Assembly (NCBI RefSeq): GCF_012562765.1
Contig: NZ_CP046226.1
Location: forward strand, 60,001 to 92,000
DNA: 32,000 bases
DNA from: Candidatus Saccharimonadota bacterium
GTDB lineage: Bacteria > Pseudomonadota > Gammaproteobacteria > Enterobacterales > Enterobacteriaceae
Direction of reading: 5' to 3'
Positions 15,850-31,738 of this stretch are shown in pieces. The notes beneath the pieces were generated by a model. That model made no database searches, was not told the origin of the DNA, and saw only the letters and a program-made list of their open reading frames with translations. The position numbers and the translations under genes were made by a program. How positions within the stretch are numbered: position 1 is the first letter of the stretch; every line of letters starts with the position of its first letter.

Positions 15850-15920
15850 GGCGCATTGGCAGAATGGTTATGCAGAGGATTGCAAATCCTTTTATTTCGG
15901 TTCAATTCCGGAATGCGCCT
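15850..15920 (+). tRNA. cysT: tRNA-Cys (anticodon GCA)
   Basis: Hand-folded cloverleaf with acceptor GGCGCAT/ATGCGCC, anticodon stem GAGGA/TCCTT, loop TTGCAAA, T arm TTCGG-TTCAATT-CCGGA and discriminator T. It closely resembles E. coli tRNA-Cys. No 3' CCA is encoded; the gene is followed by TTTTTT. Confidence 0.9.
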
Positions 15921-15947: not shown

Positions 15948-16037
15948 GCCCAGATGGTGGAATTGGTAGACACAAGGGACTTAAAATCCCTCGACATATA
16001 TATTGTTGTGCGGGTTCAAGTCCCGCTCTGGGTACCA
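15948..16037 (+). tRNA. leuZ: tRNA-Leu (anticodon UAA), class II with a long variable arm
   Basis: Acceptor GCCCAGA/TCTGGGT, D arm GTGGAATTGGTAGACAC, anticodon stem AGGGA/TCCCT with loop CTTAAAA and T arm GCGGG-TTCAAGT-CCCGC. The sequence is near-identical to E. coli leuZ outside the variable arm. The 3' ACCA is encoded (16034..16037). Confidence 0.9.
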
Positions 16038-20616: not shown

Positions 20617-20785
20617 ATTTATGCCTCTGAATAGTTTAGATCTTTTTATAACATTTGTTCAAAACAAATTAATTATTAATTAAAAATTTTTCTAATACAT
20701 TTGTTTTATTTATAAATATTAAAAATAAAAAATTTAAACACTCAGAGGCAATAGAACTCATAGATCTTTCAAAATACTAATAATT

Positions 20786-20995
20786 TTAAATAGCAATTAC
20801 ATTAGCAGCAGAAGGACCTTTGGCTCCGTTAGTGATTTCAAATTCTACTTTTTGGCCTTCAGTTAATGTTTTGAATCCATTGCTTTGAATTGCAGAAAAA
20901 TGTACAAAAACATCTTTACTACCATCTTCAGGAGTAATGAAACCAAAGCCTTTAGATTCATTAAACCACTTAACGTTACCTTTAATCTTGGACAT
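20786..20995 (-). CDS. cspE: Cold-shock-domain protein CspE
   Basis: 69-aa protein [69 protein letters not shown]. By my recollection it differs from E. coli CspE at only about 4 positions. I place the start at ATG 20995; the ORF track's extra M comes from an upstream TTG codon. Confidence 0.95.
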
Positions 20996-21192
20996 CAATT
21001 ATTACCTTTAAATAAAAATAGACACTGAAGTGTGTCAATTAAAGTACAACAATTAATAATTCATTTGTCTAGTTAAACAGATCAAAAAAGTGAGAAATGT
21101 CGAATTTTTTAAATTTTATTTAAAATAATATTTTTCATATTTAATTTTTTTAAATTCAATATATAATTTTTTTAAAAAGGTATAATTTTTTT

Positions 21193-25238: not shown

Positions 25239-27848
25239 TTATGGTTTTTGTGCTGGAGCAGTAGCATATCTATTAGCAGCGTGTCCTCCTGCTCCTCTAT
25301 TTTTATTTTCTATATTAAATAGTGAATATATTAATTTACGATTTTTATAATAATATAATAATGTATGTTTATTATTTTTATTTAATTGTTTTTTTTTAAA
25401 TAAAAAAAATTTATTTGGTATTTTTTTTTCAATTATATTATTTTTTTTTATAATTTTATCTTTTTTATTTGTAATAATTTTTGTTAATAATATATTATTA
25501 AAAAATATATTATCTTTTATATAAAGATTTATTTTAGATAAAATTTTTTCATTATAATTTATAATATATTTATTATTTTTTTTATAAAAAATTTGAGAAA
25601 AAAATATAGGTGAATTAAATACAAAATTTTGTTGAGTATTTAAGTTATGTATAATATTTTTATTTAATTTTTTATGTTTTAAATTATTTATTTTTAAGTT
25701 TAATTGATTATATGTTTGTACTGTTTTTATAAAAAATAAATTAGGTCTTTTATTAAAAATAATTAAATTTTGATAATAAACATTATCATAATAAAAATTA
25801 TTATATTTTTTATATATTAAATAATTTTTATTAATATTTCTAAAGGGATATAATTTTTTTTTTAAATTAAGAATTTTAAATTGATTTTTTTGACTTTTCA
25901 ATAAATTATTTATTTTTAATATTAATTGATTTTTTATTTTAATTGTTTTATGTTTAGAAAACGTAGAAAAATTTTTTATTTTAGTTTTTATTTGAGATAT
26001 TTTAATATTAAAAATTAATTTAATTTTTTTAACATAATTAATATATCTATCATATTTTTTTTTAAAAAAAATAATTATTTTTTTATTTTTATTTAAAAAA
26101 AAATTTTTAATAATATTAATATTCTTTTTATTAAAATTATTAAACATAATATTATTAATTTTAAAAAAAAAATTAATTATTTTATTTTTTTTAACACTTT
26201 TATTTTGATTATTAATAAAAAATTTTTTATTTATAATAAAATTTTTCTTTTTTATTAAATTTTTTTTTAACAATTGATAAGAATAATTATCATTTTTTTT
26301 ATGATAAAATGCATAATTTAAATTATATATTTTTGTTATAGAATTATTAATATTTTTTTTATCTTCTCCATGTCTAATACGTAAAATAGAATAATTAGGA
26401 GTTTCTATTTGGTCATTTGGAATTATAAAAGTTCGTATACCATTTTTTCTATTTTCAATAGCATTAACAGATTTTCTTTTTTCATTTAATAAATATGATG
26501 CTATTTTTACTGGTACTATTGCATATACTTCTTTAGTATTTTCTTTAAATGATTCTTCTTCAATTAATCTTAAAATTGATAAAGATAATGATTTATAGTC
26601 TCTTATTGTTCCATTTCCTATACATCTAGGACACATATAATGACTTGATTCTCTTAGAGATGAACTAATTCTTTGACGAGACATTTCTAATAATCCAAAT
26701 TTTGATATTTGATTCATTTGTATTTTTGCTCTATCTTGACGTAATTTATCTCTTAAACGTTGTTCAACAGCTCTTTGATTTTCTAAAGAAGACATATCAA
26801 TAAAATCAATAACAATTAAACCACCTATATCACGTAATCTTAATTGTCTTGCAATTTCATCAGTAGCTTCTAAGTTAATATTAAAAGCTGTTTCTTCTAT
26901 ATCTATTCCTTTAGTTGCTTTAGCTGAATTAACATCAACTGATGTAAGTGCTTCAGTTGTATCAATAACTATTGATCCTCCAGATATTAAATTTACTTTT
27001 CTTTGAAATGCAGTTTCTATTTGTGATTCTATTTGATAATGACTAAATAATGGAATATTTCCAGAATATAATTTAATTTTTTTATTAAAATCAGATCTTC
27101 CTAATAAGCTAATATATTCTTTAGCTAATTTTAATATTTTAGGATTATCAATAAGTATTTCATTAATATCTGTATAAAGATAATCTCTAAAAGCCCTCAT
27201 AATTATATTACTTTCTTGATGTATTAAAAAAGGAGCTGGTTTACTATTAGCTATTTGATTAATTAATTTCCAATGTTTTAATCTAAATTGTAAATCATAT
27301 TCTAATTCTTTATTTTTTTTTCCTAAACCTGCAGTACGAATTATTAATCCCATTCCTTTAGGTAATTTTAAAGATAGTAAAACTTCTTTTAATTCATTTC
27401 TTTTTTCACCTTCAATTCTTTTTGAAATTCCTCCTACTTTAGGACTATTAGGCATTAAGACTAAATATGTACCTGCTAAACTTATGAAAGTAGTTAATGA
27501 AGCTCCTTTATTACCTCTTTCTTCTTTATTAATTTGTACAATTAATTCTTTACCTTTATATAAATATTCTTTAATATTTTTTTTTTTTAAAATAATATTA
27601 TTCGAGTCATCAGTAATATTTTTATAATTAATTTCTTTAAAAGGTAAAAATCCATGTTTTTTAGTACCATAATCTACAAAAACAGCTTCTAAACTTTGTT
27701 CAATATGAATAATTTTACCTTTATATATATTAGATTTTTTTTTCTGATAAGTATCATTAGCGATATCTAAATCATATAATCTTTGTCCATCAACCATAGC
27801 TACACGTAATTCCTCATGTTGTGTAGCATTTATTAACATTCTTTTCAT
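25239..27848 (-). CDS. rne: Ribonuclease E
   Basis: 869-aa ORF. Residues 1 to about 496 are collinear with the E. coli RNase E catalytic half (MKRMLINATQ.EELRVA, S1 domain, DVNS, LRDIGGLIVIDFIDM, Zn-link CPRCIGNG, SILRLIEEE). The rest is a K/N/I low-complexity tail ending in NRGAGGHAANRYATAPAQKP. It is divergent from rluC, as in E. coli. Confidence 0.95.
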   Translation of the reverse strand: MKRMLINATQHEELRVAMVDGQRLYDLDIANDTYQKKKSNIYKGKIIHIEQSLEAVFVDYGTKKHGFLPFKEINYKNITDDSNNIILKKKNIKEYLYKGKELIVQINKEERGNKGASLTTFISLAGTYLVLMPNSPKVGGISKRIEGEKRNELKEVLLSLKLPKGMGLIIRTAGLGKKNKELEYDLQFRLKHWKLINQIANSKPAPFLIHQESNIIMRAFRDYLYTDINEILIDNPKILKLAKEYISLLGRSDFNKKIKLYSGNIPLFSHYQIESQIETAFQRKVNLISGGSIVIDTTEALTSVDVNSAKATKGIDIEETAFNINLEATDEIARQLRLRDIGGLIVIDFIDMSSLENQRAVEQRLRDKLRQDRAKIQMNQISKFGLLEMSRQRISSSLRESSHYMCPRCIGNGTIRDYKSLSLSILRLIEEESFKENTKEVYAIVPVKIASYLLNEKRKSVNAIENRKNGIRTFIIPNDQIETPNYSILRIRHGEDKKNINNSITKIYNLNYAFYHKKNDNYSYQLLKKNLIKKKNFIINKKFFINNQNKSVKKNKIINFFFKINNIMFNNFNKKNINIIKNFFLNKNKKIIIFFKKKYDRYINYVKKIKLIFNIKISQIKTKIKNFSTFSKHKTIKIKNQLILKINNLLKSQKNQFKILNLKKKLYPFRNINKNYLIYKKYNNFYYDNVYYQNLIIFNKRPNLFFIKTVQTYNQLNLKINNLKHKKLNKNIIHNLNTQQNFVFNSPIFFSQIFYKKNNKYIINYNEKILSKINLYIKDNIFFNNILLTKIITNKKDKIIKKNNIIEKKIPNKFFLFKKKQLNKNNKHTLLYYYKNRKLIYSLFNIENKNRGAGGHAANRYATAPAQKP

Positions 27849-28188: not shown

Positions 28189-29136
28189 ATGTATAAAAAA
28201 ATAGATTATAAACTTATAATTATACCTAATTACATAGATTCACAAAGAATTGATAATTTTTTAATTACAAAATTTAAAAATATTCCTAAAAGTTTCATTT
28301 ATAGAATTTTACGACAAGGAAAAATAAGAGTTAATAAAAAAAAAGTAAATCCAAAATATAAAATAAAATCACAAGATATTTTAAATATACCTTTAATATA
28401 TATAAAAAACATAAAAAAAAAGAATACATTAATTAATGAAAAAAAAATATTTTTTTTTAAAAAAATGATTTTATTTGAAGATAAATATATTATTGCTATA
28501 AATAAACCATCTGGTATTGCTGTTCATGGAGGTAGTGGTATAAATTTTGGTATAATTGAAAACTTTCGAGTTTTATTTAAAAAAATTAAATTTTTAGAAT
28601 TAGTACATAGGTTAGATAAAGAAACTTCAGGTATATTACTAATAGCAAAAAAAAGATCTGTATTAAAAATATTACATAAACAATTACGTGAAAATAAAAT
28701 AATAAAAAATTATATAGCATTAGTGAAGGGAACTTATACGAAAAATAATCATGGACATATTAAAGGTTTTTTATTAAAAAAAAATAATAATAATAAGATA
28801 AAAGTAATAACACATAATACACTTGGTAAGTATTCAGAAACAAAATTTAAAGTTATAAAATACTATAATTCTATGATGTTATTAAATATAATGCCTTTAA
28901 CAGGACGTACTCATCAAATTAGAGTACATATGTCCCATATTGGTCATCCCATTGCTTATGATCAACGTTATGGAGATAAAGATTTTAATTTAAATTTAAA
29001 AAAAATAGGATTAAATAGATTATTTTTACATGCACAAAAAATAAAATTTATACATCCAATAACAAATAAAAAAATTAATATTTGTGCTCCTTTAGATTAT
29101 AAATTAAATAATTATTTATTAAAATTAAATTCATAA
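28189..29136 (+). CDS. rluC: 23S rRNA pseudouridine(955/2504/2580) synthase
   Basis: 315-aa ORF with an S4-like N-terminus (QRIDNFL...IYRILRQGKIRVNKK), the catalytic block LVHRLDKETSG and GRTHQIRVH. It has the same divergent position relative to rne as in E. coli. Confidence 0.9.
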   Translation: MYKKIDYKLIIIPNYIDSQRIDNFLITKFKNIPKSFIYRILRQGKIRVNKKKVNPKYKIKSQDILNIPLIYIKNIKKKNTLINEKKIFFFKKMILFEDKYIIAINKPSGIAVHGGSGINFGIIENFRVLFKKIKFLELVHRLDKETSGILLIAKKRSVLKILHKQLRENKIIKNYIALVKGTYTKNNHGHIKGFLLKKNNNNKIKVITHNTLGKYSETKFKVIKYYNSMMLLNIMPLTGRTHQIRVHMSHIGHPIAYDQRYGDKDFNLNLKKIGLNRLFLHAQKIKFIHPITNKKINICAPLDYKLNNYLLKLNS

Positions 29137-29186: not shown

Positions 29187-29259
29187 TTAATTTAAATAAA
29201 ATAATATTTCTATAATATAGAATAAAATTATTATTAAAAAATAAATAAAAGGATTAAAT

Positions 29260-29433
29260 ATGGCTGTACAAAAAAGTAAAAAATCTAGATCTAAAAGAGG
29301 TATGCGTCGATCTCATGATAAATTATCTGAAAATAAAATTTTATTAATTGATAAAAAAACGGGAAAAAAATATTTATATCATAATATGACATCTGATGGT
29401 TTTTATAAAGGAAAAAAAATTATAAATAAATAA
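29260..29433 (+). CDS. rpmF: 50S ribosomal protein L32
   Basis: Not in the supplied ORF track (57 aa). My hand translation is [57 protein letters not shown]. It is collinear with E. coli L32 ([22 protein letters not shown]...ADGYYRGRKVIAK) and the same length. A GGA Shine-Dalgarno-like element sits at 29251..29253. Confidence 0.9.
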
Positions 29434-29618
29434 TTTTTATTTTTAATTATTTAAAAATTTATCTTAAATAATTATCTAAATTATTTATTTAAATTAAATT
29501 TATTTTTTATATGTTTTTTATAAAAGATAAATTTAATTATATTTATAATATAAATAAATTAAATAATTTAAATATTTAAAAATTTTTTATGTTTTAATAT
29601 AGGAATATTAATTTGAAT

Positions 29619-30615
29619 ATGAATAATAATTCATTATTAAATATACAAAAAAAAAAAAATAGCTGCTATTTTTCCAGGTCAAGGATGTCAGTTTATTGGA
29701 ATGTTATCAGATTTATTTAATAATAATTTAATTATTAAAAAAATTTTTCAAGAAGCATCTAATATTTTAAAATATGATTTATGGAATTTAATTCAAAAAG
29801 GTCCTCTAAAAACATTAAATATAACTTATTATACTCAACCTGCTATATTAATATCATCTTTTGCAATATATAAATTATGGTTACAAAAAAATAATATAAT
29901 ACCTAATATTATGGCTGGTCATAGTTTAGGTGAATATACTGCTATGTTATGTAGTAATGTTATTAATTTTTATGATGCTATACAATTAGTTAATTATAGA
30001 GGTAAATTAATGCAAGAAATATCTTATTCTTTAAAAGAAAATAATATGGATGGATATTTTATGCAAGTTATTTTAGGTTTAAACAAAAATTTAGTTCAAA
30101 AAATTTGTAAACAAGAAGCAAAAAATAATATAGTTAATATTTCTAATTATAATACATATAATCAAGTTACAATTAGTGGGAATAAAAAAGCTATATTAAG
30201 AGTTGTTAAAATATGTAAATTATTAGGTGCTCATAATATACCATTATATATTAATACACCTGCACATTGTTTATTAATGAAACCAATAGTAAATAAATTT
30301 AAAAAATTTTTAAAAAATATTAAATTTAATCATCCTAAAATTCCTATTATTAATACCCTTGATATAAAATGTGAAACATCTCCAAAAAAAATAAAATATA
30401 ATTTAATACGTCAATTATATAATCCAGTAAATTGGGTTAAATGTATAGAATATATATCAAATAAAAATATAAATAATTTATTAGAATTTGGTCCTAAAAA
30501 TATATTAGCAAAAATAACTAAACAAATTATTAATAATTTAGATGTTATTTCAATAAACAATTCTAAAACATTATCTATTGCATTAAAAAAATATAATAAT
30601 ATGAGAAAAATATGA
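29619..30615 (+). CDS. fabD: Malonyl-CoA:ACP transacylase, with the reading frame interrupted inside an A15 tract near the 5' end
   Basis: The intact ORF 29701..30615 carries GHSLGEY (active-site Ser) and is collinear with E. coli FabD. The conserved N-terminal IAAIFPGQGCQFIGM is encoded in the same frame at 29659..29700 but has no start codon. A start (TTG 29613 or ATG 29619, with AGGA at 29601) exists only in another frame that enters the A15 run. See findings. Confidence 0.85.
29645..29659 (+). repeat. Homopolymeric A15 tract at the fabD frameshift site
   Basis: Counted directly: ...atac + 15 A + tagctgct.... It is the longest homopolymer I found in the window. Confidence 0.95.
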
Positions 30616-31349
30616 ATTTAAAAGGAAAATTAGCTTTAGTTACAGGAGCTAATCGTGGTATAGGATATTATATTTCTAATACTTTAGCAAATTATGGTGC
30701 TAAAGTTATTGGAACATCTAAAAGTATTCATGGTGTAAAAATTATAAATAAATATTTAGGTCAAAAAGGTATTGGTTTAATATTAGATTTAATAAATAAT
30801 TCTGGATCTATTAAAAATTTCTTAAATAACATTCATCATAAATTTGGAAATATAGATATATTAGTAAATAATGCTGGTATTACTTCTGATAATCTTCTAA
30901 TAAAAATGAAGGAGAGTGAATGGAATAATGTTTTAATAACGAATTTAACTTCTGTTTTTATATTATCAAAAGAAGTTATTCGTTATATGTTAAAAAAATC
31001 ATTTGGACGTATTATTACTATAGGATCTATAATAGGATCTATAGGTAATATAGGACAAGTAAATTATGCAGCATCAAAATCAGGTTTAATAGGATTTAGT
31101 AAATCTTTAGCTTTAGAAGTAGCACATAAAGGAGTTACTGTTAATATTATATCTCCTGGATTTATTGAAACTGATATGACTAATAAACTTTCAAAACATA
31201 CAAAAAATAATATTTTATCTAAAATACCTTTTAAACGTTTTGGTAAACCACAAGAAATAGCTGATGCTGTAGCATTTTTAGCTTCTGATAAAGCATCGTA
31301 TATTACAGGAGAAACAATACATGTTAATGGTGGCTTGTATATGCCTTAA
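30612..31349 (+). CDS. fabG: 3-oxoacyl-[acyl-carrier-protein] reductase
   Basis: 245-aa ORF with TGANRGIG, NNAG, the catalytic YAASKSG (YxxxK) and C-terminal GETIHVNGGLYM. Its ATG overlaps the fabD TGA (ATGA). Confidence 0.96.
   Translation: MNLKGKLALVTGANRGIGYYISNTLANYGAKVIGTSKSIHGVKIINKYLGQKGIGLILDLINNSGSIKNFLNNIHHKFGNIDILVNNAGITSDNLLIKMKESEWNNVLITNLTSVFILSKEVIRYMLKKSFGRIITIGSIIGSIGNIGQVNYAASKSGLIGFSKSLALEVAHKGVTVNIISPGFIETDMTNKLSKHTKNNILSKIPFKRFGKPQEIADAVAFLASDKASYITGETIHVNGGLYMP

Positions 31350-31453: not shown

Positions 31454-31738
<285 letters not shown>

Follow-up and report, generated by a model that had tools for sequence, protein, structure and literature searches.

The window analysed here is a stretch of 32,000 nucleotides (nt) of contig NZ_CP046226.1 (positions 60,001 to 92,000), with a GC content of 19.2%, and our subject is the 5' end of its fabD gene. 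An open reading frame (ORF) of 304 amino acids at 29701..30615 (+) is identical to QJC29390.1, the acyl carrier protein (ACP) S-malonyltransferase of the Enterobacteriaceae endosymbiont of Plateumaris pusilla, a member of the set of reed-beetle symbionts whose genomes Reis et al. 2020 (PMC7289800) determined. The genes around fabD are, in order, rne (-), rluC, rpmF, fabD, fabG and acpP, with fabF next in the sister genomes. We compared this locus with those of the symbionts of four other Plateumaris species, braccata (L002), sericea (L003), rustica (L004) and consimilis (L005), and with five loci from Donacia symbionts (L006-L010); each symbiont is referred to below by the name of its host. 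The order rluC-rpmF-fabD-fabG-acpP-fabF is identical across all related loci, and plsX and fabH, which are located between rpmF and fabD in E. coli, are missing from all ten. The features of the window on which the argument turns are listed here, with their basis in brackets.

29601..29604, + strand: Shine-Dalgarno (SD)-like AGGA, 8 nt before TTG 29613 (sequence; AGGA, AAGGAG or AAGGAT in four of the five Plateumaris symbionts, lost in consimilis)
29613..29621, + strand: canonical starts TTG 29613 and ATG 29619, in one frame (window coordinate modulo 3 = 0; sequence)
29613..29720, + strand: upstream ORF of 35 codons, running into the tract and, in another frame, over the start of fabD (ORF listing)
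29638..29640, + strand: TAA stop in the fabD frame, the upstream bound on in-frame starts (sequence)
29647..29659, + strand: A13 tract, site of the frame break, in place of the ancestral ATG AAA AAA codons (sequence and sister alignments)
29659..29661, + strand: ATA, candidate near-cognate start and first fabD-frame codon after the tract (ATA in four of the five Plateumaris symbionts; equivalent to residue 4 of solved FabD proteins)
29662..29700, + strand: conserved FabD N-terminal codons, AAIFPGQGCQFIG (13 codons; synonymous-biased change, profile score and structure alignment)
29668..29670, + strand: ATT, the start in the RefSeq annotation (WP_281348857.1, 315 amino acids, MFPGQG...; annotation)
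29701..30615, + strand: fabD as given in GenBank (QJC29390.1, 304 amino acids), without the N-terminal strand and the GQG loop (annotation, ORF list and profile)
30612..31349, + strand: fabG, joined to the fabD stop codon by an ATGA overlap, with acpP downstream

ATG 29701 is the first canonical start in the fabD ORF, both in the sequence and in the list of ORFs, as had been reported in an earlier interpretation made from the letters of the window (the sequence-only reading). After the TAA at 29638, the fabD frame runs through ATA TAC, four AAA codons and ATA (29659), then GCT GCT ATT TTT CCA, GGT CAA GGA, TGT CAG and TTT ATT GGA, to reach ATG (29701). The same interpretation was right that the codons from ATA 29659 onward spell I-A-A-I-F-P-G-Q-G-C-Q-F-I-G, that no ATG, GTG or TTG lies between TAA 29638..29640 and the FPGQG motif, and that AGGA 29601..29604, TTG 29613 and ATG 29619 open a separate frame which passes through the tract to TAA 29718..29720. 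Its counts within the tract were wrong: the homopolymer described as A15 (29645..29659) is A13 (29647..29659), positions 29645-29646 reading AC, and the leader translated as ...NTKKKKN is (L)NMNNNSLLNIQKKKNSCYFS..., i.e. ...SLLNIQKKKN. The rule that one fewer A or two more would fuse the two frames stands, but because the tract is A13 the fusing lengths are A12 and A15, not the A14 and A17 that had been proposed. The tract is, as claimed, the longest homopolymer in the window (the runner-up is T12 at 27577..27588) and lies exactly at the frame break, where it separates the frame of TTG 29613 from that of fabD. A run of at least 13 in 32 kb of such composition has P ~0.25 by mononucleotide shuffles, and tract length by itself was rejected as a statistical anomaly; what exceeds chance is the position of the tract at the frame break together with its uninterrupted persistence in five genomes.

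We found that the 13 codons upstream of Met 29701 must, judging from their pattern of change, be translated, because the differences among the five Plateumaris symbiont genomes are almost solely synonymous. Over this segment, AAIFPGQGCQF(I/V)G, pairs of genomes show one to four synonymous and zero or one non-synonymous differences, the first Ala codon being GCT, GCG or GCA. Over the whole gene, the ratio of non-synonymous to synonymous change (dN/dS) is 0.25-0.39 for every pair of Plateumaris symbionts. When the segment from ATA 29659 is added to the 304-amino-acid ORF, the score against TIGR00128 rises from 266.1 to 295.6 bits (cut-off 260.9) and the start of the match moves from profile position 17 to position 3, giving coverage of positions 3-289 of 290. 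The segment aligns with residues 5-17 of solved FabD proteins and contains CAA 29680..29682, the Gln of GQG and the equivalent of E. coli Gln11, the residue that forms the oxyanion hole with its backbone amide (bioRxiv 10.1101/2020.05.15.098798); this codon lies upstream of the annotated Met 29701. All the catalytic motifs are intact, namely FPGQGCQ (29671..29691), GHSLGE (Ser92), NYRGKLMQ (Arg117) and PAHCLLM (His201).

These results bear on the public annotations, in which the FabD versions of the sister genomes have 304/305 amino acids in GenBank and 315/316 in RefSeq, the latter using ATT as start for four of the genomes. By the comparison above, both public starts, ATG 29701 and ATT 29668, make the protein too short. 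ATT 29668 comes too late because the two Ala codons before it vary solely at the third position, and translation probably begins upstream of it.

In the Donacia symbionts, fabD begins ATG AAA AAA TTT G(C/T)T GC(T/A) (A/G)T(T/A) TT(T/C) CC, i.e. MKKF(A/V)A(I/V)FPGQG (five loci). With the conserved Ala codons as the anchor of the alignment, the ancestral ATG comes to lie three codons before ATA 29659, inside the present tract; the alignment therefore indicates that the ancestral fabD start and the two Lys codons that followed it were absorbed into the homopolymer in the Plateumaris lineage. Both the length of the tract and its register vary among the related strains: it is A13 in pusilla, A11 in sericea, A12 in rustica, A11 in braccata and A9 in consimilis. 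It is free of interruption in all five, while its length drifts between A9 and A13. In the fabD frame a canonical start is present in braccata alone, a TTG directly after the tract at the codon equivalent to ATA 29659, which is its annotated start (MAAIFPGQG, 318 amino acids). A neighbour-joining tree built on RluC plus FabG of the five Plateumaris symbionts has the topology (rustica,((sericea,pusilla),(consimilis,braccata))), and on this topology the ATA after the tract is ancestral for the clade and the braccata TTG derived, a change toward a canonical start. A TAA in the fabD frame stands two or three AAA codons before the ATA or TTG in rustica, consimilis and braccata.

As a control for the maintenance of the tract, we followed nine in-frame A-runs of at least 8 in rluC, the 5' part of rne and fabD of pusilla. 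Most are interrupted by substitution in at least one sister, and only one or two are kept in all five genomes; the A12 run of rne, for instance, corresponds to A7-G-A4 in sericea and to A5 in braccata. This comparison is suggestive, but not decisive, of selection maintaining the tract at the 5' end of fabD. The rne run (-, 27577-27588) is itself of note: it is an in-frame A12 in the mRNA sense near the 5' end of the gene, remains A12 in rustica and is interrupted or shortened in sericea, braccata and consimilis, and slippage on it would give a fraction of out-of-frame RNase E transcripts. In sericea, rluC carries an in-frame A14 (L003, alignment column ~242, orthologous to window ~28413-28421) that exceeds the fabD tract of the window.

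The spacer between rpmF and fabD (window 29434-29612 and its orthologues in L002-L005) varies several-fold in length, with aligned stretches of 155 to 353 nt, and only the final ~80 nt before fabD can be aligned among the sister genomes; this final block looks to be the only part under constraint. The candidate upstream start TTG 29613 is kept in pusilla, sericea, rustica and braccata, and ATG 29619 is specific to pusilla (ATC or ATT elsewhere). The arrangement TAGGAATATTAAT-TTG at 29600..29615 matches the usual initiation pattern of the window, in which ~40% of genes have AAGGA or AGGA ~7-12 nt before the start (e.g. rpsT, rpmF, truA, pntA and ackA) and about half have no SD-like motif. Consimilis, which is without the TTG and the SD-like motif, has a lineage-specific ATG of its own 12 nt before its A9 tract. 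Each of the five species has a canonical start open into the tract in exactly one phase, in no case that of fabD. In shuffles, a start of this kind arises by chance in 20-54% of cases per species.

Three lineage-specific substitutions that gain a G each make a canonical start near the tract: the change of ATC to ATG in the leader frame of pusilla (window 29619-29621), the new ATG of consimilis (L005 ~2982-2984, 12 nt before the tract) and the TTG in the fabD frame of braccata (L002 3001-3003). At 19% GC such changes may be notable.

The upstream ORF was rejected as an independent conserved small protein, since neither its frame nor the position of its stop is conserved. Comparison of the genomes makes it unlikely to encode an independent peptide because its 3' end varies, the tract being followed immediately by TAG in sericea, rustica and consimilis. 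Upstream of the tract there are only 11-12 codons with no homolog and a frame that shifts between clades, and downstream a gene with a dN/dS of 0.25-0.39. The leader would be at most a disposable N-terminal extension or a vehicle for loading ribosomes, not a conserved protein.

We give roughly even credence to the proposal that full-length FabD is made from the upstream start, with its register corrected in the tract by RNA polymerase slippage, ribosome sliding or both. Ribosomes would start at AGGA 29601/TTG 29613/ATG 29619 and read MNMNNNSLLNIQKKK into the tract, where a one-base change of register would join the leader frame to IAAIFPGQG.... That change could come about through RNA polymerase slippage, which would yield A12 or A15 transcripts, or through a ribosome that slides on the A-run by +1 or -2; sequence comparison does not tell the two contributions apart. 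This route would give a FabD that is ~15 residues longer at its N-terminus, is produced at only part of the initiation rate and contains the leader peptide MNMNNNSLLNIQK, the peptide (M)NMNNNSLLNIQK and the tryptic peptide IAAIFPGQGCQFIGMLSDLFNNNLIIK. For an A13 tract the yield of fused FabD is expected to be ~10-30% of initiations, which would be roughly ten times that of initiation at AUA because AUA initiates at just ~0.02-3% of the AUG level in E. coli. Two of these steps we infer, namely transcription and use of the upstream site, and slippage at this tract; what the sequences show is the anatomy, the selection on the N-terminal codons, the loss of the ancestral ATG and the conservation of the tract. 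The sequence-only reading had put forward slippage as a candidate for the rescue, and with support from the comparative data (an uninterrupted tract in five of five genomes, a start site typical of the genome and the frameshift in Donacia fabD described below) it is still the most plausible route.

Several observations weigh against recoding from the upstream start. The correction needed is not the same throughout the clade, as pusilla and braccata need one A fewer or two more, whereas sericea, rustica and consimilis need one A more. A 1-nt indel between clades puts homologous nucleotides of the upstream ORF in different frames, and because of it the leader peptide is not conserved. Consimilis, which has no canonical fabD start, has lost the SD-like motif and the TTG, whereas braccata, which has a TTG start of its own, keeps both; this distribution is the reverse of what upstream-start use most simply predicts. 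Pusilla lacks the stop directly after the tract (A(n)-TAG) that is seen in its relatives. A promoter scan of 29200..29760 was uninformative, with fewer promoter-like sites than in shuffles and no terminators, and the 81 nt downstream of the tract hold no stimulatory RNA structure (z = -0.52 versus shuffles), so that a downstream structure was rejected as frameshift stimulator, its fold being no better than that of shuffles.

The Donacia symbionts start fabD at the ancestral ATG and have their frame problem within the gene.

L006:2027-2991, L007:2015-2964, L008:2035-2996, L009:524-1479 and L010:535-1490: Donacia fabD, split at codon ~148 (basis: two ORFs)

At codon ~148 all five loci have a tract (A10, A9, A13, A13 and A10) that reads GL/GI-KKK-stop. 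One extra A restores the frame of the downstream part, which is open for 171-175 codons to the normal end of the gene and includes the catalytic His motif, and both halves have a dN/dS of 0.18-0.53. The Plateumaris symbionts have no tract at this site (GGT TTA AAC AAA AAT TTA). Because the tract frameshift is conserved with both halves open and constrained, poly(A) recoding appears to sustain fabD in the Donacia-symbiont clade; this mid-gene break, a candidate for rescue by slippage, has the classical form and appears to be unreported. Reis et al. 2020 (PMC7289800) make no mention of frameshifts, pseudogenes, homopolymers or slippage. At most sites of the two clades the layout is shared, with a stop of the incoming frame (UAG in most) right after the tract and the protein continued in the -1 frame (AUA in most). 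An extended proposal, that poly(A) recoding is obligatory and evolutionarily stable for FabD across the whole reed-beetle symbiont clade, having arisen independently at the 5' end in Plateumaris symbionts and at codon ~148 in Donacia symbionts, with the tract selected, possibly for low FabD, instead of tolerated as damage, we regard as tentative and on the unlikely side. The Donacia FabD also reads GYSLGE at codon ~91 (L006-L010), where the Plateumaris symbionts and E. coli have GHSLGE, with Tyr in place of the His beside the catalytic Ser.

Direct initiation at the near-cognate ATA 29659, or with less likelihood at ATT 29668, is the main rival to recoding, possible but less likely. The A-rich leader would then act as an unstructured, SD-independent loading site, the tract would be 5' untranslated region, and the upstream ORF would be irrelevant or would only recruit ribosomes. 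The sequence-only reading had set beside slippage only an assembly error and 5' decay, a list that proves incomplete, since ATA 29659 is the TTG codon of braccata and has an in-frame stop close before it in three sisters; sliding by the ribosome had not been considered either. No canonical start lies between TAA 29638 and ATA 29659, and the braccata ortholog has its annotated start at exactly that codon; the ATA is kept in the other four genomes, is ancestral on the tree, and, with the TTG, is the sole in-frame candidate in rustica, consimilis and braccata, where the TAA is two or three AAA codons upstream. The fabD of consimilis is equally constrained despite the loss of the upstream SD-like motif and TTG, and in sericea, rustica and consimilis the TAG of the upstream ORF overlaps the ATA (ATAG) in a manner that resembles termination-reinitiation coupling. 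Genetic code table 11 permits both ATA and ATT, of which RefSeq already uses ATT in four of the genomes, and ATT starts are occasionally curated in Buchnera (PMC3890641).

Set against this, initiation at AUA or AUU reaches only ~0.02-3% of that at AUG in E. coli (bioRxiv 10.1101/063800). The ATA, which only poly(A) precedes, has no suitably spaced SD-like motif, the nearest AGGA lying 54 nt upstream and serving TTG 29613; this weakens a start at the ATA but does not exclude it, because about half of the genes in the window also lack the motif. In pusilla, ribosomes from the good upstream site would cross the ATA in another frame. Each of the 27 other genes of the window starts at a canonical codon and has a complete N-terminus, so non-canonical initiation is not a habit of this genome. 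ATT 29668 is specifically disfavoured by the two preceding Ala codons, which change solely at third positions. Recoding from the upstream start is preferred to a start at the ATA because of the low initiation rate, the missing SD-like motif and the interference from ribosomes in the other frame; the two routes are compatible and not mutually exclusive.

That the tract length in the assembly is wrong, with a true A12 or A15 giving an ordinary fabD from TTG 29613, we consider improbable. The genome was assembled with SPAdes from 150-bp Illumina NextSeq reads with no stated validation of homopolymers (PMC7289800), and a miscount is somewhat more plausible in pusilla, the sole ATA-bearing genome that needs the loss of one A. 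However, the upstream start is out of frame or blocked in five independent assemblies, which would need errors in different directions, and 30 of the 32 A or T runs of at least 9 in the window are in frame in intact ORFs, including the A12 of rne. The Donacia fabD frameshifts occur at tracts down to A9-A10, where the Illumina consensus is reliable, and the braccata start after the tract means that the tract need not be coding. The agreement of the five assemblies and the intact runs make sequencing or assembly error, an alternative in the sequence-only reading, improbable as an account of the whole pattern. A systematic one-base under-call of homopolymers, suggested by the fact that eight of nine recoding sites need one extra A, was rejected on the same ground, as 30 other runs of at least 9 are in frame.

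Less likely still is a start at ATG 29701, perhaps by reinitiation after 29718..29720, which would give a FabD shorter by ~17 residues (E. coli numbering): no canonical start precedes it in frame, the stop of the upstream ORF lies just 17 nt beyond it and the 304-amino-acid product is just above the TIGR00128 cut-off (266.1 versus 260.9 bits), but the 13 codons before it are conserved in five genomes and homologous to the N-terminus of every FabD compared, and the first core strand is encoded there together with the GQG loop whose Gln amide forms the oxyanion hole, so that the truncated enzyme would probably be inactive and the conservation would be left unexplained. Selection on the upstream codons effectively excludes the 5' decay with initiation at Met 29701 that had been offered as an alternative. 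Equally hard to credit is a young pseudogene with no functional FabD, to which the loss of the canonical start, the broken fabD of Donacia and the absence of plsX and fabH from the rpmF-fabD interval might point, as dN/dS is 0.25-0.39 in all Plateumaris pairs with no internal stops or frameshifts in the five genomes, the GHSLGE, Arg and His catalytic motifs are intact, fabI, fabG, acpP and fabF are retained with fabD, and fatty-acid synthesis is scored as retained in the source paper (PMC7289800).

Some further observations concern the surroundings of fabD and the wider search. The longest acpP ORF (window 31469-31738, +) has ~10-12 surplus N-terminal codons relative to the family profile and to orthologs of 79 amino acids, and the true acpP start is probably an ATG internal to it. 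The window also encodes fabI, and in the spacer between lipA and fabI (20782-21082, -) there is a match to the Rfam cspA thermoregulator at 78.8 bits, against a gathering score of 78. Two tRNA genes (RF00005) lie between ackA and cvpA, at 15850-15920 and 15948-16034 (+). A scan of a genome-contig collection for FabD returned solely an unrelated Bacillota locus, and a search of metagenome contigs for exact copies of the 5' end of fabD gave none.

Both public annotations of pusilla fabD (304 and 315 amino acids) drop residues that are under selection, and the two parts of fabD in Donacia symbionts should be annotated as one gene over the tract. Metabolic reconstructions in which fatty-acid synthesis counts as present hinge on how such cases are read. 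If recoding is true, slippage-dependent expression would reach beyond the symbionts of aphids and ants to a clade of beetle symbionts for which 26 genomes have been sequenced, a series suited to asking whether tracts are selected or merely tolerated. The absorption of a start codon by a homopolymer is an unusual route by which a start site is lost and replaced. A tract at the 5' end also separates the possible routes cleanly, as the first conserved residue would be Ile behind a leader under slippage and Met under a weak start.

Compared with FabD of the E. coli type (PDB 1MLA, 2G2Z and 6U0J), the symbiont protein can be aligned from end to end (E = 2.5e-82 with 1MLA) and shares the GQG, GHSLGE, Arg and His motifs; it differs in having ~44% identity, Cys for Ser in GQG(S/C)Q, a gene context without plsX and fabH, and an uncertain protein start. 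With the known AUU and AUA starts (E. coli infC and pcnB, bioRxiv 10.1101/063800; Buchnera, PMC3890641) it shares a codon one base off AUG where an ortholog has a canonical start, and the want of a canonical in-frame alternative, but it differs in that the fabD ATA has no SD-like motif at the right distance and faces a strong competing upstream start in another frame. The natural non-canonical E. coli starts listed as confirmed are AUU only, with no AUA (bioRxiv 10.1101/063800).

Slippage on A-runs of at least 9 is a general trait of bacterial RNA polymerases. Tamas et al., in 2008 (PNAS 105:14934), reportedly found that in Buchnera and Blochmannia transcriptional slippage rescues frameshifts at poly(A) tracts, and Weiss et al., in 1987, are said to have described 'shifty stops' adjoining slippery runs. 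For tracts of the Buchnera and Blochmannia kind, one account puts the frame-corrected fraction at 12-50% of transcripts (PMC5009743) and a second at ~30% (PMC3017870), and genes with tract frameshifts are routinely curated as functional (PMC3890641). Ribosomes, too, slide on lysine-encoding A-runs (Koutmou et al. 2015, PMC4363877). As in ribosome sliding and shifty stops, an A-run of at least 11 read as AAA would let the tRNA re-pair perfectly in any register, and a stop in the incoming frame follows the tract in sericea, rustica, consimilis and the Donacia sites (UAG; UAA in cincticornis; G and then UAG in tomentosa). Pusilla differs from shifty stops in having no such stop, in needing a ribosomal shift of +1 or -2 and in having no stimulatory structure downstream (z = -0.52); the slippery run of a programmed frameshift site is present. 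The likeness to the Tamas type is closer: the genome is that of an AT-rich obligate insect symbiont, a long A-run without interruption marks the exact point of the frame break, purifying selection acts on a gene that is otherwise intact, and the state is kept across species while the length of the tract drifts. The fabD case is distinct in that the break, seen here in the genome sequence, falls at the very 5' end, where a short leader without homologs meets the gene, instead of between two conserved halves, and in that the tract has absorbed the ancestral start and is followed by a weak start that offers a slippage-free route. The fabD of the pusilla symbiont is a poly(A)-tract frame problem of the type already described in insect symbionts, and its unusual feature is its location at the 5' end.

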